From: Treponema sp. | GTDB lineage: Bacteria > Spirochaetota > Spirochaetia > Treponematales > Treponemataceae | NCBI GenBank assembly: GCA_023231445.1 | Contig: JALNVF010000002.1 | Location: 481-64,480 of the forward strand | DNA length: 64,000 nucleotides | Reading direction: 5' to 3' | In this document: positions 13,373 to 35,910 of the stretch, piece by piece | How the letters are laid out: each line of letters starts with the position of its first letter | Numbering within the stretch: position 1 is the first letter of the stretch | The notes under the pieces: generated by a model | What the model saw: only the letters and a program-made list of their open reading frames with translations | Databases searched by the model: none | What the model was told of the DNA's origin: nothing | Program-made: the position numbers and the translations under genes

Positions 13373-14143
13373 GTGAGACACTTTTTCTTTGAATGCAGAC
13401 AGTGTATTCTCCTTCTGTTGCGGGAACTTATTACGTTTTTTGCGGGAGGTGGAGAGTGTGCTGTTTGTGGAGCACGGTGCGGCGCGATTCCTGTATGCAG
13501 AACGTGCAGAACGACATATTTTACGCCGGTTCTGTCTGCGGATAAACGATGTCAAGTCTGCGGAAAAGAATTGATATCCGAACGTGGATTGTGTATGCAG
13601 TGTCGTACTGAAAAACTGCTTACGCATACCGATTTTGTACTTCCGTTGTATTCATACCGATTATGGAACAGCGTACTTTTGTTCCGCTGGAAAATTGATG
13701 GAGAGCGGACATTATCGCCTTTTTTTGCGGATAGGTTTGCATCGGCTCTTGCGGCGCTTCCCCGGCAGCTGGTTATAGTTCCTGTGCCGCCGCGTCCGGG
13801 AAAAATACGGAAAAACGGCTGGGATCAGATTGATGAAATCTGTATGTTTCTTGAGTTGCACTGGAAATACCGCGTATGCCGCATATTGGAACGAAAAACG
13901 ACGGAAGAGCAGAAAACGCTTGATCGTACCGAAAGATTAAAGACAATAGGCCGCGCATATTCATTAAAAACCGGCAGAAGGTTAAAAGAAGGATTGAGAC
14001 GTACAGACGGATTACTACCGCAGAATGTATGTCTTATCGATGATGTGATGACAACAGGTGCAACAATAGAGAGTTGCTCGGCGGTTTTAAAGACTGCCGG
14101 AGTAAGGAAGGTGTATGCAGTAACATTGTTTATCGTTGATTAG
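13373..14143 (+). CDS. comF: ComF family protein (double zinc ribbon plus PRTase domain)
   Basis: CxxC pairs (CAVC, CRTC, CQVC, CMQC), VPVP, LIDDVMTTGAT PRPP-binding loop. Start (GTG) is uncertain. Confidence 0.88.
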   Translation: MRHFFFECRQCILLLLRELITFFAGGGECAVCGARCGAIPVCRTCRTTYFTPVLSADKRCQVCGKELISERGLCMQCRTEKLLTHTDFVLPLYSYRLWNSVLLFRWKIDGERTLSPFFADRFASALAALPRQLVIVPVPPRPGKIRKNGWDQIDEICMFLELHWKYRVCRILERKTTEEQKTLDRTERLKTIGRAYSLKTGRRLKEGLRRTDGLLPQNVCLIDDVMTTGATIESCSAVLKTAGVRKVYAVTLFIVD

Positions 14144-14224: not shown

Positions 14225-14704
14225 ATGGCTTCAGAAGATTCACAGTTTCAGCTTGTCACATTCCAACTCGGCGATGAGTTATACGGTGTCGATATTATGG
14301 ATGTAAAGGAAATCGTAAAAATACAGGATGTCCGTCCGATACCTAATGCACCGTACTATGTCGAAGGAATTATAAATCTCCGTGGAGAAATTATTCCGAT
14401 TATTGATTTGCATAAGCGGTTCAGACTTAAGGCGCTTGCAAAAATAAATGATTATGATGATTTCGAGGGCGGTTTTATTATTTTAAGTATTGAGGATAAT
14501 AAAATTGGTATTATCATAGATCGTGTTGCCCGTGTTGTTCCTGTGAAATTAAGCGAAGTTAAACAACCTCCTCAGATGTTAAGTGGTATAGGAACTGAAT
14601 ATATACAGGGCGTTATCCGTTCAGAAAGCGGATATCTTATCATGCTCAATATACGAAAACTATTCAACCCGAAAGAGCTTCAGAAAATTATTGATATACA
14701 ATAG
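14225..14704 (+). CDS. cheW: Chemotaxis coupling protein CheW
   Basis: QLVTFQLGDELYGVDIMDVKEI, PIPNAPYYVEGIINLRGEIIPIIDL, IGIIIDRV. Confidence 0.96.
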   Translation: MASEDSQFQLVTFQLGDELYGVDIMDVKEIVKIQDVRPIPNAPYYVEGIINLRGEIIPIIDLHKRFRLKALAKINDYDDFEGGFIILSIEDNKIGIIIDRVARVVPVKLSEVKQPPQMLSGIGTEYIQGVIRSESGYLIMLNIRKLFNPKELQKIIDIQ

Positions 14705-14710
14705 GTAGAA

Positions 14711-15766
14711 ATGATCCGTTCATACAGTACAACTATCAGACGTAAAGAGATGGATGCGGTGCTTACCTGCATGGTGGACGAAAAAATAGGTCCCGGTGAG
14801 CTTAACATACGTCTTATACAATCGGTAAAAGATTTTTTTAAATGTGACGGGGCGGTTGCATTCCGCAGCCCTGCGATTGCGCTCAAATATGTGCTTAAGG
14901 CACTTGATTCGCCTGTCGGCAGTTGTGTTATGCTTTCAGCCCTTGCTCCTTCATGGCAGATTGTTGCGCTTGAGGATCTTGGTTATGTACCCCTTGTACT
15001 TGATGTCGATGAAACTACAGGACTTGTTACGCCTGATATAGTTTCCGAAGGTATAAAAACCGGTGGTCGTTTTCTGCTTCTGCATGAAACGCAGGGAATT
15101 ATGCCGGATATGGATGCATTGACGGCTCTTGGCATCCCTGTTATCGAGGATATTTCGCAGAGCGCGGGTGCAGTCATTCCTGCCACAGATGAGAATGGAA
15201 ATCCTGTTGAAGGCCGTCGTGCCGGTTCATTCGGCGTGTTTACTATTCTTGGCCTTGAGGAACACGATGTTATAACAGCGGGCGGCGGAGCCGTCCTTAT
15301 GGCACCCGGAAGACGAGAATGGATTCCTCTTAAAAAATTTACAGATTCTGCTCCTTTGACGGAACTTCTTCCGGATTTGAACAGTGCACTTGCATGGGTT
15401 GAGCTGCGTGAATTTCCAAAAAATGAAATTGTGCGCAGGGAAATTTTTACATTGTTCCAACGGTCGTGTATGGCAGGACGGCATAAGCTCTTTGTCCGCG
15501 ACATGGAAGGGGCATCGACTATGTGTTCGTTCCCTGTAGTTCTTTCAAGTTCTTATAAAGAAGTGAAACAGTATACCGACCGTAAGGACGTTGAAATCAG
15601 ACCTGCATATGAGAATTCTGTTATAGCACTCCGTGACGAACAACTTTCCGCCTCATGTATACATGCAAAATCGCTTTATCTAAGGTGTGTGTTGTTTCCG
15701 CTGTATCCGCGTCTAACGCATTCCGAGACAGCAAAAATTGTGAAAGTTCTTGGAACACTGCCTTGA
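14711..15766 (+). CDS. DegT/DnrJ/EryC1/StrS-family protein lacking the PLP Schiff-base lysine
   Basis: Fold-type I motifs (F.SPAIAL, PLVLDVD, PVIEDISQSAG, ITAGGG, LFPLYP), but the FSFxxxK motif reads ILGLEEHD. Confidence 0.8.
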   Translation: MIRSYSTTIRRKEMDAVLTCMVDEKIGPGELNIRLIQSVKDFFKCDGAVAFRSPAIALKYVLKALDSPVGSCVMLSALAPSWQIVALEDLGYVPLVLDVDETTGLVTPDIVSEGIKTGGRFLLLHETQGIMPDMDALTALGIPVIEDISQSAGAVIPATDENGNPVEGRRAGSFGVFTILGLEEHDVITAGGGAVLMAPGRREWIPLKKFTDSAPLTELLPDLNSALAWVELREFPKNEIVRREIFTLFQRSCMAGRHKLFVRDMEGASTMCSFPVVLSSSYKEVKQYTDRKDVEIRPAYENSVIALRDEQLSASCIHAKSLYLRCVLFPLYPRLTHSETAKIVKVLGTLP

Positions 15767-15778
15767 CGAGAGGTGCTG

Positions 15779-16636
15779 ATGAAAAAATGTCTCATCGTCA
15801 TAAATACTCATAAAGAAGAGTCAAAATTTCTCGGAACTGAAATAGCACACTGGCTGCGTCAGAAAGAAATAGAGTCCTCGTTTTATCAGTTCAATGGTTT
15901 CAGTACGGAAAATCCGTTCGGCGGGTGTGATTTTGTTGTGACACTCGGTGGGGACGGTACCGTTCTTTTTGCTGCCCGCGGATGTGCTTCTCTTGGTATA
16001 CCGGTGTTTCCTGTGAATCTTGGAGAATTCGGTTTCATAGCAAGTATTCAAAAAACTGAATGGAAAGTTCATCTTGAACGCTTCCTTGATGGAACTGCCT
16101 ATATTGGTAAACGGAATATGGTTCAAGCTGCTCTCGTACGGGGCAAGTCTGCGGCCTTTTCGACTGTTGCGTTGAACGATATTGTCGTCAGTGCAAAAAC
16201 TGCTGCTCGTACTATTTCTCTTGATATTTCATATAACTGTGCTCCGCTCGGAGTGTTTAAAGCAGACGGTATAATAGTAAGCACTGCGACAGGTTCTACT
16301 GCATATTCGGCTTCTGCCGGTGGACCTATAATTGATCCTGAACTTGATGCGCTTGTGCTGACACCAATCAATTCATTTTCACTTTCCAGTCGCCCGCTTG
16401 TACTCAGCCCGAACGGTGAAATCGGAATTACGGTACTGCCTTCCCGTATCAGAGATATTATTATTACAGTAGACGGGCAGGAACCGGTAAATCTACAGGT
16501 CGGGGACTGTATAAAAATAAGAAAAACAACGGATAAGGTAAAGCTTATAGACTGCACAACAGAAAAATTCTATGATGCACTTCGTTCAAAGCTTAACTGG
16601 TCGGGAGGTCCCCATGCTGGAAGATCTGACAATTAA
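15779..16636 (+). CDS. nadK: NAD+ kinase
   Basis: TLGGDGTVL, VNLGEFGF, ALNDIVV, ADGIIVSTATGSTAYSASAGGP. Confidence 0.96.
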   Translation: MKKCLIVINTHKEESKFLGTEIAHWLRQKEIESSFYQFNGFSTENPFGGCDFVVTLGGDGTVLFAARGCASLGIPVFPVNLGEFGFIASIQKTEWKVHLERFLDGTAYIGKRNMVQAALVRGKSAAFSTVALNDIVVSAKTAARTISLDISYNCAPLGVFKADGIIVSTATGSTAYSASAGGPIIDPELDALVLTPINSFSLSSRPLVLSPNGEIGITVLPSRIRDIIITVDGQEPVNLQVGDCIKIRKTTDKVKLIDCTTEKFYDALRSKLNWSGGPHAGRSDN

Positions 16637-18365
16637 AGATTTTGCACTTATTGACCAGACGACAATAGAATTTTCACAGGGATTTACAGTACTTTCCGGT
16701 GAAACTGGTGCTGGAAAATCGATACTTATCGGTGCAGTTTCTTTTCTGCTTGGCGGGAAGTCCGATTCCCAGGTAATACGCGCAGGAACACATGAGGCGT
16801 CTGTCTCTGGTACCTTTCTGCTTGACGGTAAGACGGTTCGGAAGCAGGCTGCCGTCGCAGATGAAGACGGAGAAGAAGAATCTCTGTCGGCACAGGATTG
16901 GCTTGGCAGACACGGAATAGAAACTGAAAACGGACGTATTATTGTGCGGCGCACACTGCGTGACAGCGGTAAATCGTCTGCATGGATTGGCGGTACGCCC
17001 GTTACCCGTGCAGATCTTGCATCGTTTTCAACATTTCTGGTTGATATACACGGACAGCATGAACATCAATCTCTCATGCGCGTAAGTGAGCACCGGAAGT
17101 TTCTAGATGCGCGTGCTGGTATTGTGGATGAGGTGAACCGGTTTACCGTACTGTATGCGGCACTTGTAGCAAAAAGAAAACTGCTCGATCAGCTGAATAC
17201 ATCAAATGAAGACAGAAGCCGTCGTATGGAAATGTATTCGTTTGCGCTGCAGGAAATAAATGACGCAAAACTTAAGAGTGATGAAGATATACAACTTGAA
17301 GAAGAGGAAAGTAAACTTTCTTCGTATGAAAAACTCTATGCAGATATCGAGTCGATCACCGGAACTTTATCGGGAAATGACGGTTCTGTTATTTCTGCCC
17401 TCAGGCAGGTGAGACGTGACAGTATGCATGCTGTTGAAATGGATAAAGGTTTATCCGGACTTGATTCGAGGGTAGAGTCTTCATTTTATGAAATTTCAGA
17501 TATCGCTGATGAATTTTCTGCCTATAAAGAGAGACTCATATTTGATCCGGCCAGATTACAGGAAGTACAGGACAGGCTTTCTCTTATTTATAACCTTAAA
17601 AAGAAATATGCATCGTCTCCCAATGCATCCCTCTCGGAAGTTTTTAACTATGCAGCGGAAGCTCAGAATAATCTTGACAAACTCGGTGCAGGAAATATCG
17701 ATAAGGTCGGGCTGGAAAAAGATATTGCCTTATTGGAGAAGCAGGTATATATTGCGGCGAAAGCACTCTCAGAAAAACGTAAGACAGCAGGTGGAAAGAT
17801 GTCCGGTGAAGTGGAAACTGTTCTTTCCCTGCTGGGGATGCCCGGAACAAGATTCTCCGTAAATGTTACAGAAAAATCCGGTACAGGAATGGAACAAAAA
17901 TGCGGTCCGTACGGACTCGACAATATTGAATTTCTTATAAGTGCGAACCCGGGGTCTCCGCTGCTTCCTCTTGCACAAATAGCGTCGGGCGGCGAACTTT
18001 CACGCGTAATGCTTGCTTTGAAAACTATTTTTGCAGAAACTGATCCCGTAGAGACGCTCGTATTCGACGAGATTGATACAGGAATTGGCGGTGAAGTTGC
18101 AGTTGCTGTCGGGAGTCACATGAAGAATCTTGCGAAAAATAAACAGATATTGTGTATAACTCATCTGGCAAGTATTGCTGTTTATGCCGATAATCAGATA
18201 AAGATAGAAAAAGGTGTGTCAGACGGAAAGACATCTTCAGATTGTCATCCTGTTACCGGAGAAGAAAGGGTGAAAGAAATTGCCCGTATGCTTTCCGGAG
18301 AAGAATCAGAGGAATCGCTTGAACATGCCAGGTCTATGCTGAATAAATTCAGCGGAGGTGTCTGA
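16614..18365 (+). CDS. recN: DNA repair protein RecN
   Basis: SD GGAGG then ATG 16614; GETGAGKS, HGQHEHQ, ASGGELSRVML, LVFDEIDTG, ITHLASIA. Confidence 0.96.
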   Translation: MLEDLTIKDFALIDQTTIEFSQGFTVLSGETGAGKSILIGAVSFLLGGKSDSQVIRAGTHEASVSGTFLLDGKTVRKQAAVADEDGEEESLSAQDWLGRHGIETENGRIIVRRTLRDSGKSSAWIGGTPVTRADLASFSTFLVDIHGQHEHQSLMRVSEHRKFLDARAGIVDEVNRFTVLYAALVAKRKLLDQLNTSNEDRSRRMEMYSFALQEINDAKLKSDEDIQLEEEESKLSSYEKLYADIESITGTLSGNDGSVISALRQVRRDSMHAVEMDKGLSGLDSRVESSFYEISDIADEFSAYKERLIFDPARLQEVQDRLSLIYNLKKKYASSPNASLSEVFNYAAEAQNNLDKLGAGNIDKVGLEKDIALLEKQVYIAAKALSEKRKTAGGKMSGEVETVLSLLGMPGTRFSVNVTEKSGTGMEQKCGPYGLDNIEFLISANPGSPLLPLAQIASGGELSRVMLALKTIFAETDPVETLVFDEIDTGIGGEVAVAVGSHMKNLAKNKQILCITHLASIAVYADNQIKIEKGVSDGKTSSDCHPVTGEERVKEIARMLSGEESEESLEHARSMLNKFSGGV

Positions 18366-19168
18366 TGGCGAAAATATCGGAAGAAACACGACTGCAGCTT
18401 GGAACCGCGGTCATACCGTATCAGAAACAGATCGACGGATTACTCGCGAAAGAAAAAACAATGCTTTCTGTTATGCAGGGAGATAATTCCGGGCAGGCTT
18501 ATAAAAAATTGCAGCTTGCGGAGGATATGATTTTTATTTCAACATTATTCATGGCAGAAAACAGTCTTTCACTTAAAATTCTTGAAGTGAAAAATAATGA
18601 CGCATTGAATGAATCCCGTAAGACACTTTATAAAGCAATAATTTATCTGGAAGAAGTTGCTTCAAATTTTATAGATGTGTCATATGCAGATTTATCAGAG
18701 AGATGGGAAAAAATTGCAAATATTCCAGTATCGAAACGCTATCAGCTTATACGGAAGCTGGGGCTGGCGATTCGTCTTCTCAAAGACTCATTCGGAGAAA
18801 ACAGCAAATGGAAATGGTCTTTTGTTGAACTTGAGGGCCGTTTTACAGCAGTAGCCAAAAATCTTATTGACATGCGGAAGGGTGCAAAGGATTATTTTGA
18901 TCCGCGTTCACTTGATTACGAGATTACCGTTTTATATGTCCGTATGATGCAGCGTCTTCTTGACCAGTCGGCAAGCGGCTATCGTGATAAGTATGAATTA
19001 TCTACCCGTCGTATAGATGATATGCGTAACGCAATAAAATTTCTGCTTGCACGTCATAAACTATGCCTGGCGGTCGGTGATAAAACTAACGCAGAGGAAA
19101 TAAAGAAGAAGGCTGTTGTCTGGAAGGATAAAATGGATTCCGACCAGAAGTCAGGCTTAAGCACATAA
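18365..19168 (+). CDS. Hypothetical all-helical protein
   Basis: 267-aa ORF coupled to the recN stop (TGATG); no recognisable motif. Confidence 0.8.
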   Translation: MAKISEETRLQLGTAVIPYQKQIDGLLAKEKTMLSVMQGDNSGQAYKKLQLAEDMIFISTLFMAENSLSLKILEVKNNDALNESRKTLYKAIIYLEEVASNFIDVSYADLSERWEKIANIPVSKRYQLIRKLGLAIRLLKDSFGENSKWKWSFVELEGRFTAVAKNLIDMRKGAKDYFDPRSLDYEITVLYVRMMQRLLDQSASGYRDKYELSTRRIDDMRNAIKFLLARHKLCLAVGDKTNAEEIKKKAVVWKDKMDSDQKSGLST

Positions 19169-19172
19169 GACT

Positions 19173-20393
19173 ATGAACAAAAAACTTGCACTCAAAATAT
19201 TTGAAGGATTTTCAATACAAAGATGGAATGATCTTATACGACCTTTTGAACTTGTAGAAATGGACAAAGCGGGTGAAAAAATGGTCATTGCATATCTTTT
19301 TGGAAAATATGAAGAACATAAAGGTGTATTTATCGACTGGAAATGGATGGTATATGCATCGTTGTTTGATCTGTTGAAAAAAATAGCACTCTGTGATATA
19401 AAAGCCCCCGTACAACAGCTTTTAAAAAAAGAATATACACAGGAATATCTCCGTCTTGATGAATGGGTTCTTAATCAGTATCGTCCGCTTATTGATGACG
19501 ATGATTTGTTTTCGCAGTTCACGATTTATATAGGAGAAAAAGCCGGTACTATTCAGATTCCTGAAAAAAAAAGGGCCACGGCTAAAGTTTTTTCTGCAGC
19601 TCATAAATATTCGACAATGCGGGAACTTCAGATGCTTTCTGTAGTAAATGAACGGGAACGTTTAGTAAAGATAGAAACAGAACTGCAGGCCCAGATTCAG
19701 CCTTATCTTGATCTGGAAGGTCTTCAGATGATGATGACCCGTCAGCGGACGTTTGATTTTCTGTTAAAAATTGAGCAGCTGCGGTTCCAGACAAGGTGGA
19801 ATCAGACCCCCCGCGTGCCAAAGACAAGCGTACTCGGACACAGCTATTTTGTCGCAGTAATGACGTTGCTGCTGGGGAGAGACACAGGCATAAAAATGTG
19901 TTCCCGCCGTATAATCAATAATTTTTTCAGCGGCCTTTTTCATGATCTGCCGGAATCGGTCACTCGAGATATTATTTCGCCTGTAAAACAGGCAACTGAC
20001 GAACTTCCTGATATTGTAAAAAAAATTGAAGATGAGATTGTCGGACGGGAACTTGTGCCTCTGATGGAATCTTTTTTTGTCGATGAACTTATGTATTATA
20101 CAAGCAGTGAATTCGTAAACCGTATAAAAATTGACAATGGAGGAATGCGTGAAGTATCCTGGGAAGAACTCAATAATACGTATAATAACGATTCATTTGA
20201 ACCTGTTGACGGCAGACTAGTGCGTCTTTCTGACCATTTAGGGGCTCTTTTGGAGGCCGACAGTTCAATAAAACACGGTATCACGTCTGCGCATCTGGTT
20301 CATGGACGGGAAGGAATGCTTGCACATTATAAAGCAGGTGAAATTATAAACGGTATAGACGCCGGTTCTTTATTCAAAGAAATTGTAGAGTAA
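19173..20393 (+). CDS. HD-domain phosphohydrolase, tandem YfbR-like domains
   Basis: C-terminal half has QTRW...SVLGHSY...LFHDLPESVTRDIISPVK...LSDHL; N-terminal half is a degenerate copy (IQRWND...LFDLL...DIKAPV). Confidence 0.8.
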   Translation: MNKKLALKIFEGFSIQRWNDLIRPFELVEMDKAGEKMVIAYLFGKYEEHKGVFIDWKWMVYASLFDLLKKIALCDIKAPVQQLLKKEYTQEYLRLDEWVLNQYRPLIDDDDLFSQFTIYIGEKAGTIQIPEKKRATAKVFSAAHKYSTMRELQMLSVVNERERLVKIETELQAQIQPYLDLEGLQMMMTRQRTFDFLLKIEQLRFQTRWNQTPRVPKTSVLGHSYFVAVMTLLLGRDTGIKMCSRRIINNFFSGLFHDLPESVTRDIISPVKQATDELPDIVKKIEDEIVGRELVPLMESFFVDELMYYTSSEFVNRIKIDNGGMREVSWEELNNTYNNDSFEPVDGRLVRLSDHLGALLEADSSIKHGITSAHLVHGREGMLAHYKAGEIINGIDAGSLFKEIVE

Positions 20394-32433: not shown

Positions 32434-34682
32434 GCAGTATCTCCCTGCGAATAGATTGTTTCTGCCGTACACGGCAGGCTGCATATACGTGCACTCAGTG
32501 CCTGTGAAAGCGCTGATGAAAATGCGGCCGGAACGGTATTATGGACAATTTCACCGATCTGTCCCGGATTGTCTTCTGATTGTATGAAGGAAATATGAAG
32601 ACCGTCACAGACGATTGTTTCATCGGCAACAAGCTGGCTGAGTTCCTGCTGTATAGACAGACGGAGTGTGTTTTCTATTGCATGTAAGGAAAATATCCTG
32701 CCGCAGTCTACGGTAAGCCAGATTCCTTTGATCCGTTCTTTATATGTGTACGGATCAAGTTCTATTTCGACAACTGCGGCACCAAAGGAAGTCGTATGAA
32801 ACGGAATACCCCTGAAATCAGATTTATTCCACTGTTTTTTCATTGACGGGCCAAGTCCTTTTTTTACTGTTAGAGGCAGTTGTGTTTTTTCACGTTTTTT
32901 TGCAATCTCAAGACTGCACTGAGTGAGAAGGTGCGTCATTATACTGATGTTGCTGTAAATATTGTCGGGCAGCGGCATTACGTCATTTATTTCCATGTCG
33001 GGGGTGATTTTTACAGCGGACGGCGGAAGTTTCAGAATGGCTGACACCGTCTTTATCCAGATTTCTGAAATCGACGGGGAGGGTACCAGCGAATGTATTG
33101 TCACCGCATTGTCGGATTCCAGTGTGACTGCAATTTTCTGACTGCCTGAAAAAATATCGTTCCCGAAATAACCGGAACCGTCAAAGGCACAGGTAAGTCC
33201 GATACCGCGGATCGGCAGTGCAAAGAAAGTGTCTTCGGAATTACGATGCTGTTTTGCGTCAATACGGAATGTTGTATATTTACGGTTAAAATCACTCATC
33301 GCAATAACATTATTGAGTACACTTTCTGCTTTTTCCGTATGGAAAATAAAGGGCATTTTTATGTTCTTTTGATTTGAACAGATGTTTTTAAGGCGGATGT
33401 CGGCGGGCAGAATATTAGTCTCTTCGGCAATAAGCTGCAGGTGATTTTCAGCGGCAAAAAAAGCCTGGGAATCAATCATTTCAGGAAAAATTGATGTCGG
33501 CGGGTTTGTTGATGTTACCGCTTTCGCGGTAATACAGATATTCGGGATGTCATAAATATTACAGACAGCAATAACGAGTCTGTCCAGAATTTCCTGTGCG
33601 AACGGGTTGCATGATCCGACATCAATTGTTATGTCCGCCTTTACAGCTGTAATAGAACCGTCTTTCATAACAGCTGTACGGTAATGAATCTTTGCAGGAA
33701 CTCCGGATTTCATAAATTTCTGATGTTCATCACGTGAAAGCGTAAGTTTTACAGGCTTCCCGGTAAGATATGCGGCGACGGCTGTCTGTATTGCAAGCGT
33801 TGCATTCCGCCATATACCGTTTGCATCATGTCCGCTTGAATTAGTTTCTCTGATGAATATTTTTTCGTTGTCAAGATTGAGCGAAACTGACACAGCTTTC
33901 CGCAGGTAATTCGGCCACTGCGTCGGAGTGAAAATATTCATAATGCCGTTTTCCATAAAGCAGAACGCGCCGTTTGTTTCAGTCCATGACGGTTGTTCTG
34001 TATCCTGTACCCATGTTTCCGATATGTCAAAGTCTGCTGATTTGAATACTGATTCATATACGTTCGGTGCATCATCCGAGAACAGTCCTGTTTTTACAAT
34101 ACGCTGTGCGATTACGGCTCCGGTATTTTCGCTCTGCGACGGAATCCGGGGTTCTGCAGTAATCGCTGCAGGAGGTTGAACAACAAATGACGGATCAAGA
34201 TTCATTGCTTTTGTAATTTCCAGAATCTGTTTTGCATCCGGCTTTTGTTCAGTATCAGGAAGTTTGATTACCGGATGAGTATATTTTTTTGCAACAGACT
34301 CAAGCGCTGATTCCAGTGTTGAACTGTCAAATGTAACTTCTATTTCAGACGTCAGTTCGTATACCTGCGATTCGTCCGGTCCTGCGACGATTCCGATCGG
34401 TTCTCCGAAATAAGAAACACGGTCAGCGCAGAATACCGGAGTGTCGGCGTTCTGTGTACGCACCGTATTGCGTCCGGGAATATCACGCGCAGTAAAAAGA
34501 AAATAACCGTCGGGCATCTGCGGTATGGAAATATTCGTGATAATTCCTGATGCTGCAGGGCTCCGTATAAGTGCCGCATACAGCATACCCTGCCTGCTGC
34601 AGTCAGTATAATAATCAAGAGCCTGAAGAGTTGTGCGTGCTGTTTTTTGTGAACGGACACTTTTTGTACTGCTCTTAGGCAT
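32430..34682 (-). CDS. XDH-family large subunit homologue with degenerate molybdopterin-binding motifs
   Basis: Hammerhead domain (MLYAALIRSP, TARDIPGRN, GEPIGIV), TGKPVKL, RGIG, GAAVVEIELD, DCG, GQIGE. Confidence 0.82.
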   Translation of the reverse strand: MPKSSTKSVRSQKTARTTLQALDYYTDCSRQGMLYAALIRSPAASGIITNISIPQMPDGYFLFTARDIPGRNTVRTQNADTPVFCADRVSYFGEPIGIVAGPDESQVYELTSEIEVTFDSSTLESALESVAKKYTHPVIKLPDTEQKPDAKQILEITKAMNLDPSFVVQPPAAITAEPRIPSQSENTGAVIAQRIVKTGLFSDDAPNVYESVFKSADFDISETWVQDTEQPSWTETNGAFCFMENGIMNIFTPTQWPNYLRKAVSVSLNLDNEKIFIRETNSSGHDANGIWRNATLAIQTAVAAYLTGKPVKLTLSRDEHQKFMKSGVPAKIHYRTAVMKDGSITAVKADITIDVGSCNPFAQEILDRLVIAVCNIYDIPNICITAKAVTSTNPPTSIFPEMIDSQAFFAAENHLQLIAEETNILPADIRLKNICSNQKNIKMPFIFHTEKAESVLNNVIAMSDFNRKYTTFRIDAKQHRNSEDTFFALPIRGIGLTCAFDGSGYFGNDIFSGSQKIAVTLESDNAVTIHSLVPSPSISEIWIKTVSAILKLPPSAVKITPDMEINDVMPLPDNIYSNISIMTHLLTQCSLEIAKKREKTQLPLTVKKGLGPSMKKQWNKSDFRGIPFHTTSFGAAVVEIELDPYTYKERIKGIWLTVDCGRIFSLHAIENTLRLSIQQELSQLVADETIVCDGLHISFIQSEDNPGQIGEIVHNTVPAAFSSALSQALSARICSLPCTAETIYSQGDTA

Positions 34683-35910
34683 GATATGTTTCTCCTGTCT
34701 CCTTTACCGCCTGTATTACTTCGTCTGCCATGTCGTCTGTCATTCCGGGCCACAGAGGAATTGATATTGTTTCAGTATACTGTTTTTCTGCGTTCGGATA
34801 GTTTTGTGCAGTAAAATCAGGATACAGCTTTTTCCAGTACGTGAACCGGAAAAGCGGAATAAAGTGGACAGAAATGCCGATTCCTTTCTTCTGCAGTTTT
34901 TTTGCGAAATCATCCCGGTTTATGGTGAGTTTTTCCGGTTTAATGCGCAGAAGATACAGATGCCATGCGTTTCCCGTACCGTCCGGCGGCAGTGTCACAA
35001 AATCAAATCCGCTGAATGCCTTATTATATTTACTGACGATTTTTATACGTTCCTCATAAAATGTATCCGCTTTTTTGAGCTGCTCCACACCTATTGCTGC
35101 AAGTATGTCAGGCAGATTGAATTTGTATCCGGGCTCTATGATGTCATACTCCCATGATGCACGCGGAGACGTGTAACGGTCCCATGTTGTCCGGTCCATA
35201 CCGTGCATGCGCATAACCTGTATGCGTTTTGCAAGAGAGGAATCACGGACACATACCATGCCGCCTTCTCCTGTCGTGATTGTTTTCGTCACATAGAACG
35301 AAAACACACCTGCATCTCCTATTGAACCCGCATATCCGAGCGGTGTACAGGAAGGGAACGCGTGGGCCGCATCCTCAATTACTTTTACTCCGTATTTTTT
35401 TGCAAGTGCGCATATTTTTTCCATATTGCATATGTTGCCTGCAACATGTACCGGAATAACGGCGCGTACTTTATGAGCAGTGTCGCTTTTCAGTATGTTT
35501 TCGACTTTCTGTACATCAATACTGTACGAATTCTTTTCGATATCCGCAAAATAAACATCCGCACCCAGATGACGCGCACATGTTGCCGTTGAGACGAATG
35601 TATACGGTGTCGTTATTACGGCCGTTCCGGGGCGTACTCCGCATGCGTCCATCGCAAGAATCATGCCGCTTGTATTACTATTAACTGCGAAACTCACTGC
35701 CGGTGTCGTGTCCAGTCCTTTATTTTTGCGTTCGGTTATAATTTTATCAGACACGTCGTTTATTTTTTCCGAAAAATCTTTTTCAAACTGCAGGGCATAT
35801 CTTCCTGTCGTGAGCCAGCCGGAGCGGAGTACAGACAGAACTGCGTTTTCTTCCTCAGGGCCGATCGACGGACGCGAGAAAGCAACTTTGAGAGAATCAC
35901 AGTCAGCCAT
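34675..35910 (-). CDS. DegT/DnrJ-family sugar aminotransferase (intact PLP lysine)
   Basis: SGWLTTG, NSNTSGM, IEDAAHA, FSFYVTKTITTGEGG, GYKFNL, AWHLY, SIPLWP. Confidence 0.95.
   Translation of the reverse strand: MADCDSLKVAFSRPSIGPEEENAVLSVLRSGWLTTGRYALQFEKDFSEKINDVSDKIITERKNKGLDTTPAVSFAVNSNTSGMILAMDACGVRPGTAVITTPYTFVSTATCARHLGADVYFADIEKNSYSIDVQKVENILKSDTAHKVRAVIPVHVAGNICNMEKICALAKKYGVKVIEDAAHAFPSCTPLGYAGSIGDAGVFSFYVTKTITTGEGGMVCVRDSSLAKRIQVMRMHGMDRTTWDRYTSPRASWEYDIIEPGYKFNLPDILAAIGVEQLKKADTFYEERIKIVSKYNKAFSGFDFVTLPPDGTGNAWHLYLLRIKPEKLTINRDDFAKKLQKKGIGISVHFIPLFRFTYWKKLYPDFTAQNYPNAEKQYTETISIPLWPGMTDDMADEVIQAVKETGETYHA

Follow-up and report, generated by a model that had tools for sequence, protein, structure and literature searches.

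The locus examined here raises the question of what a protein with the fold of a DegT-type aminotransferase does once the catalytic lysine is gone. In a 64,000-nt window of a Treponema sp. genome (assembly GCA_023231445.1, contig JALNVF010000002.1), the open frame 14711-15766 on the forward strand encodes a protein of 351 aa, here called X. It starts 6 nt behind the cheW stop (14704; junction TAG gtagaa ATG) and ends 6 nt ahead of the listed GTG start of nadK (15773), which is followed by recN. An earlier note, made from the DNA letters alone, had described this placement, and the sequence and Pfam matches bear it out. The same note had read the protein as a pseudoenzyme, a heterodimer partner of a second DegT protein in the window, or a dehydratase dependent on pyridoxamine 5'-phosphate (PMP). 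The pseudoenzyme part of that interpretation has held up; the dehydratase and heterodimer parts are not supported by the results. In this study, we find that X is probably a homodimeric pseudoenzyme, the cofactor site of which is self-filled or rebuilt.

The assignment of X to the DegT family is based on a match to Pfam DegT_DnrJ_EryC1 (PF01041; 72.2 bits, cut-off 19.8), on an AlphaFold2 (AF2) model and on superposition with ArnB. X scores far under the cut-off of every NCBIfam equivalog model (for LegC, 43 against 420), and none of the NCBIfam models scanned is a curated model specific for its clade. The database names shown for X and its relatives are all those of aminotransferases, such as "perosamine synthetase" or "dTDP-4-amino-4,6-dideoxygalactose transaminase", and are almost certainly wrong for the X clade. 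No paper on the protein was found in the open-access text covered.

The active site was audited by aligning a 138-member family profile to ArnB; the roles of the Thr, Ser, aromatic and Asp residues and of the trans Asn and Arg residues in a DegT-type site are known (PMC11726168). Three HMMER alignments, to 7l7x and 1o61 (single-sequence) and with the family profile, place the Schiff-base Lys on Asp186 in the motif LEEH-D-VITAGGG. The codons of His185 and Asp186 lie at 15263-15268 (+), and K188 of ArnB and K186 of perosamine synthase (Per) align to Asp186. The earlier note had left open whether this Lys corresponds to an Asp in an ungapped alignment or to a His with a shift of one residue; all three alignments favor the first version, and the profile leaves His185 as a mere neighbor of the Lys position. 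The reference used there, the canonical Lys-bearing paralogue at 34675-35910 on the reverse strand (PF01041, 313 bits), carries the motif FSFYVTKTITTGEGG and is placed in the canonical clade of our trees.

Most other ligands of the cofactor and substrate are lost together with the lysine. Arg52-Ser53-Pro54-Ala55 (codons 14864-14875, +) replace the N-S-G-T phosphate-binding loop, with S-A-T64 of ArnB on S53-P54-A55, so that the phosphate-binding Thr (T64) becomes Ala55. The phosphate Ser (S183 in ArnB) is Gly181 in X; 53 of the 138 family members have Ser there. Furthermore, the ring-stacking aromatic residue (W89) is replaced by Pro80, the Glu of GEGG (E194) by Gly192 and the substrate-side His (H329) by Ala299, and the trans phosphate ligands (Lys/Asn), found in ArnB in the KYN before LPD, are Thr217 and Leu219. 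Two positions are kept: the Asp that binds the pyridine nitrogen in DegT enzymes (D160 in ArnB) is Asp147 in the motif IEDIS (codon 15149-15151, +), as the earlier note had recognized, and the O3' ligand (H163) remains a polar residue, Gln150. Thus altered, the site cannot support an internal aldimine, and in the core clade, which includes X, it very probably cannot hold pyridoxal 5'-phosphate (PLP) or PMP in the canonical way.

The loss of the lysine is a property of the family, within which the former Lys position varies freely. Across the 138 sequences, position 186 is occupied by Asp (39), Gly (23), Ser (22), His (16), Asn (12), Ala (6), Lys (5) or Cys (4), and position 185 by Asp (39), Glu (24), Arg (12), Asn (12), Gly (11) or His (9). 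Asp186 is present in all 20 aligned Treponema relatives, in which residue 185 is His (9), Arg (7) or Lys (4). Because of this constancy, and because Lys occurs at 185 or 186 in only nine of the 138 members, the loss is due neither to chance nor to a sequencing error. No conserved Lys that might compensate was found in any column of the 138-member alignment. Lys is present in at least half of the family only at columns 12, 291, 292 and 345, of which the last three sit in the C-terminal domain; Arg is the alternative at 12, 291 and 345, whereas His and Asn occur at 292. The search for a substitute lysine, which the earlier note had named as a check, therefore yields none that is conserved, as far as can be told from sequence. 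Other positions are under tight constraint: D98, G129, E146, D147, G191, G193, D222, N224, R242 and P330 are each conserved in at least 90% of the family.

These columns also bear on the proposal that His185 is catalytic and that X acts, like ColD and E1, as a PMP-dependent 3-dehydratase. ColD and E1 (DdhC/RfbH) are indeed DegT folds without a Schiff-base Lys and share their fold with X (Z 37.4-37.8), and His185 precedes the aligned Lys position by a single residue. E1 carries a [2Fe-2S] cluster; the X family has no conserved Cys cluster that could hold one, only Cys20 being widely kept (104 of 138). In ColD and E1 the His stands at the Lys position itself and is catalytic (PDB titles: E1 H220K, ColD H188N/H188K), whereas in X that position is Asp, the neighboring His is found in 9 of 138 members and the ligands of the PMP phosphate and ring are degraded. 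In addition, no 4,6-dehydratase or other deoxysugar gene adjoins X, and in structure ColD and E1 are further from X than ArnB and Per are. A dehydratase is thus very improbable, and a link of X to the XDH-like (xanthine dehydrogenase-like) module of the window, which the earlier note had imagined as serving such an enzyme, was not found.

The overall fold of X appears intact. An AF2 model built on a deep alignment (A2; the 138 sequences, down to 21% identity) reached a mean predicted local distance difference test score (pLDDT) of 97.3 and a predicted template-modeling score of 0.94; it supersedes an earlier model from 21 close relatives, with pLDDT 78 and below 50 in the Lys loop. The model superposes on ArnB with Z 40.8 and a root-mean-square deviation of 2.4 A over 338 of 351 residues, and on perosamine synthase, Spr1654, WecE, WbpE and PseC with Z 38.7-40.2; the Lys-less dehydratases come lower. 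Since the superposition on ArnB-type enzymes covers nearly the whole length, X is, as modeled, a complete two-domain DegT fold with large and small domains and not a fragment. ArnB (PmrH) and GDP-perosamine synthase, which share this fold-type I architecture over the full length (Z 40.2-40.8), are also the best profile matches to the X family (E 5e-47 and 7.5e-45). Common to them and X are the IED and LPDLNAA motifs, Arg242, the C-terminal FPLYP and the predicted dimer mode. In contrast to both enzymes, X lacks the Lys, the phosphate Thr, the aromatic residue, the GEGG Glu and the substrate His and has its trans ligands replaced; it is about 20-30 residues shorter, and its gene lies between cheW and nadK and not in a sugar or lipopolysaccharide cluster.

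The prediction of a homodimer gave an ipSAE interface score of 0.89 against 0.00 for the best control, although this may reflect likeness to DegT homodimers that are already solved. Among proteins of solved structure, 20 of 30 same-chain pairs and 1 of 23 single chains attained this mark. Contacts agreed between runs to at least 97%, and the partner had a pLDDT of 92. The predicted interface comprises residues 52-56, 80-82, 183-184, 189-193, 215-218 and 221-224, which are family-specific and conserved, with confident inter-chain contacts 183-217', 183-27', 184-27', 54-217' and 191/192-27'/221'/223'. Such a prediction describes a compatible interface and is not proof that X dimerises. With this in mind, the model suggests that X probably keeps the canonical homodimer.

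The vacated site lies in this predicted interface. Arg52 is present in 101 of the 138 members, in 100 of which it is accompanied by Glu183 (codon 15257-15259, +), a family-specific acidic residue two positions past the place of the phosphate Ser; both are absent from basal lineages that retain N-S-x-T. Glu183 is predicted to contact Gly27' and Thr217' of the other subunit, and residues 52-56 around Arg52 are part of the interface. We infer that, in the core clade, the covarying Arg52-Glu183 pair fills or rebuilds the space left at the dimer interface by the phosphate and the Lys. Glu183 would take the position of the PLP phosphate and bridge to the partner at Thr217', the former place of a trans phosphate ligand. 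Pro80, Gly192, Ala299 and the Gly27-Pro28-Gly29 loop of the partner would be further changes to the same site. As a pseudoenzyme, X would have kept the two-domain fold and given up Schiff-base chemistry with PLP or PMP.

The phylogeny is consistent with a stepwise origin of this state. Close relatives of X (63-93% identity) are from Treponema or Treponemataceae wherever named. An exhaustive HMMER search of 1.84 billion representatives returned 186 clusters at E <= 1e-30, mostly of 320-390 aa, the named members of which are all Spirochaetota. Trees were calculated by a quick search, with support from the Shimodaira-Hasegawa-like approximate likelihood ratio test (SH-aLRT) only and a root set by a chosen outgroup of ten canonical spirochaete DegTs; they also took in the nearest Lys-bearing relatives from other phyla, and locus L002, the longest open frame of which gave a very long branch, was left out of the second tree. 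The Lys-less core and basal proteins, from several spirochaete families, are monophyletic (SH-aLRT 97), and the core group containing X is set apart with SH-aLRT 100 on a long stem (0.83 substitutions per site). Loci L023-L026, L028, L031, L032, L034, L036 and L037 are basal; among the basal proteins, those of L025-L028, L031, L034 and L036 retain N-S-x-T, the Ser and the His/Gln.

The tree places short Lys-bearing DegTs (about 345 aa) of Desulfobacterota, Omnitrophota and archaeal metagenome-assembled genomes further out; one of them belongs to a sugar-nucleotide cluster that also encodes a radical-SAM/SPASM enzyme and an RmlD-like reductase. Together with variants from the spirochaete family f19 (f-codes denote the spirochaete families of the sampled genomes; the names behind them are inferred), these DegTs are the nearest sequence relatives of X, of similar length and just outside the Lys-less clade; unlike X, the short Lys-bearing DegTs keep SFYATK...GEGG and all PLP ligands. 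By its place in the tree, this subfamily is likely the ancestral stock of X. X would then be an old, spirochaete-specific offshoot of a short nucleotide-sugar aminotransferase subfamily, in which the Lys alone was lost first with the remaining PLP ligands kept, the N-S-G-T loop was lost next, and the site was finally rebuilt in the core clade. Running from Lys-only loss to a rebuilt site, the Lys-less clade is a graded series well suited to following, in nature, the conversion of a PLP enzyme into a pseudoenzyme.

The f19 group, probably Brachyspira, was considered as part of the X family and rejected, as the second tree places it outside the Lys-less clade and Arg or Lys is present. The tree position just outside that clade is shared by this Brachyspira-type group and a few metagenomic proteins with Arg at the Lys position. 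In the f19 group, most clusters have Arg at the Schiff-base position and three have Lys (P0300-P0302 among P0290-P0314), which from the sequences appears to be a natural K/R polymorphism at a catalytic residue. The f19 locus L035:5986-7038 (-) encodes a near-canonical short DegT (PF01041, 228 bits). The phylum-wide count of X, 119 of 201 genomes, includes this group and therefore overstates the X clade; it may also miss divergent members near the E-value threshold.

Within Treponemataceae, X is present in 58 of 61 sampled genomes and in 24 of 24 genera and never has internal stops; among genomes of at least 90% completeness it is found in 43 of 43. It is kept even in a single-contig genome of 1,139,633 bp (G024). 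In two congeneric pairs with unsaturated synonymous divergence (dS 0.72-0.74), the ratio of nonsynonymous to synonymous substitution rates (dN/dS) of X was 0.043 and 0.058. For comparison, nadK and cheW gave 0.111 and 0.034 in the pair L013-L014, and cheW gave 0.028 in the other pair. From genome to genome, the amino-acid identity of X rises and falls with that of NadK and RecN. X is a core gene of Treponemataceae under strong purifying selection. Together with the clade-wide lack of a conserved Lys or His and the loss of most ligands, this selection upholds the pseudoenzyme proposed in the earlier note. The lost catalytic residues might also have been taken as a sign of a decaying gene without function; given the stop-free frames, the low dN/dS and the retention in a reduced genome, the chance of this is negligible. 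A gene that is core and strongly constrained even in a genome of 1.14 Mb, the size of the syphilis-agent group, rather marks an indispensable function, one that those organisms cannot lose. The G024 orthologue itself (L029:5941-7182) is an open frame of 413 aa with an uncertain start that overlaps the cheW stop; tblastn spans only query residues 4-307, which suggests extra sequence in or after the C-terminal domain.

A conserved protein without catalysis could be the silent subunit of an aminotransferase heterodimer, the active subunit being a canonical DegT, for example the 34675-35910 enzyme. A Lys-less DegT-type partner subunit has been demonstrated experimentally: in the SerTA heterotetramer of Serratia sp. 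ATCC 39006, Ser4, which is shortened at either end and encoded beside its catalytic partner Ser5, has a non-catalytic role at the dimer interface and gives Asn189* and Arg191* to the PLP phosphate of that partner (PMC11726168). Every X-bearing genome inspected has at least one canonical DegT, and the sole lineage with a clean deletion of X has none. This lineage comprises three genomes of family f4, in the same class as Treponema (1.0-1.5 Mb; L051-L053 = G223, G238, G177), probably Borreliaceae, in which cheW is directly followed by nadK and recN and a canonical DegT at E <= 1e-70 is found in 0 of 3. At the same threshold, a canonical DegT is present in 196 of the 201 sampled spirochaete genomes, and co-occurrence with X is therefore uninformative on a heterodimer. 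X further departs from Ser4 in three of four defining features: it is of full length, it has Thr217 and Leu219 at the trans-ligand positions, in columns that are not conserved as Asn or Arg, and no DegT gene adjoins it. In the inspected genomes, X and a canonical DegT are never adjacent; here they lie 19 kb apart on opposite strands, and in G024 they are about 380 kb apart. The interface residues of X are also family-specific. We did not obtain positive evidence for the pairing suggested in the earlier note, and consider it improbable. Lys-less DegT folds as such are known from ColD, E1 and Ser4; X is set apart from each of them, as it has neither a catalytic His nor a truncation and lacks both an adjacent partner and the trans ligands.

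What a homodimeric pseudoenzyme of this kind might do is suggested in part by the lineage that lost it. As the f4 genomes keep cheW-nadK-recN, CheW and NadK work without X. Because these genomes retained cheW and nadK and have no canonical DegT, there is a modest chance that X is tied not to CheW or NadK but to amino-sugar metabolism of the DegT type. If X is a pseudoenzyme, our best guess, offered at modest odds, is that it acts as a dimer without catalysis, the rebuilt site of which at the interface binds a small molecule or, with lower probability, a protein. A more specific form, which we regard as rather doubtful, is that of a new kind of dimeric sensor or carrier that arose in the common ancestor of several spirochaete families, when the PLP pocket was re-lined with invariant family-specific residues (Arg52, Glu183, Pro80 and, from the other subunit, the Gly-Pro-Gly loop). 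The ligand of such a pocket would be a metabolite (an amino sugar or a nucleotide sugar) or a client protein, and the dimer would report the status of envelope or flagellar glycans. The function would survive genome reduction in the 1.14-Mb Treponema and be dropped only where sugar amination of the DegT type was dropped as well. X is open to a genetic test in the tractable Treponema denticola.

Several observations weigh against the reading of X as a pseudoenzyme with a rebuilt site and a role in amino-sugar metabolism. The pyridine-binding Asp147 is Asp in 136 of 138 family members and is preceded by a likewise near-invariant Glu146, as might be expected of a site to which a pyridine-like ligand continues to bind. 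From their retained motifs, the basal proteins may still hold PLP or PMP non-covalently. The case for the Arg52-Glu183 plug consists of covariation and predicted inter-chain contacts. X and DegT were lost together just once, in a reduced lineage, which makes the coincidence weak evidence, a hint only; moreover, some spirochaete families have a canonical DegT and no detectable X. The first two points would also be expected if X were still an enzyme that uses non-covalent PLP or PMP or another cofactor, with a different base, for new chemistry on the DegT scaffold. Gln, His or Glu are common at position 150, basal members retain most PLP ligands except the Lys, and a dN/dS of about 0.05 is typical of enzymes. 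However, neither the phosphate Thr nor the aromatic residue that stacks on the ring survives in the core clade, and the two trans ligands are gone as well. A candidate base, be it Lys, His or another residue, is not conserved at the Lys position or beside it, and the substrate-side Glu and His are Gly and Ala in X. We therefore consider continued catalysis unlikely, and the pseudoenzyme remains the preferred reading.

X is embedded in a tight cluster on the forward strand, which runs from cheW (14225-14704; Pfam CheW, 114.5 bits) through X, nadK (NAD kinase; 15773-16636; Pfam NAD_kinase and NAD_kinase_C) and recN (16572-18365; Pfam SMC_N and AAA_23) to orf267 (18365-19168), which encodes a 267-aa protein without a Pfam family and overlaps the recN stop with its start, and a gene for an HD-domain phosphohydrolase (19173-20393; Pfam HD_3, YfbR-like). 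The genes from cheW to the HD gene are 4 to 12 nt apart or overlap, and promoter and terminator scans of this cluster gave nothing above shuffles. The listed start of recN overlaps nadK by 65 nt (16572-16636), and the listed starts of nadK and recN are probably too early; for nadK, ATG 15779 behind GAGAGG is the likelier start. The order cheW-X-nadK-recN-orf267 is kept in families f1, f2, f3 and f6 of the class, and X-nadK-recN-orf267 in f13 and f26. By tblastn, orf267 was found behind recN in all six of these families (loci L020-L024, L029, L032, L037-L039), and by gene order it is a conserved partner of recN. Between mutS and cheW lies an open frame of 256 aa (13373-14143, +) that looks ComF-like from weak similarity (E only ~1e-3) to phosphoribosyltransferase and double zinc ribbon domains.

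Other spirochaete families place X differently. At f13-type loci (L037:3258-5925, L024:4808-5941), rsmE, a WecG/TagA glycosyltransferase gene and a gene for a 377-aa GlmU-like hexapeptide protein lie upstream of X, a glycan-type neighborhood that is lost from the Treponema locus. These genes were considered as partners of X and rejected; the GlmU-like protein was not found in the Treponema genome with that query, and WecG is present there elsewhere. At f28/f35/f48-type loci (L025, L026, L031, L033, L034), the X homologue is followed by a same-strand open frame of about 125 aa. A 6-pyruvoyl-tetrahydropterin synthase (PTPS/QueD-like) was likewise rejected as a partner, as it is restricted to f35/f28-type loci. 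It is the downstream frame at L026, the sole locus scanned with Pfam, where the X homologue faces an RlpA-like gene (DPBB + SPOR).

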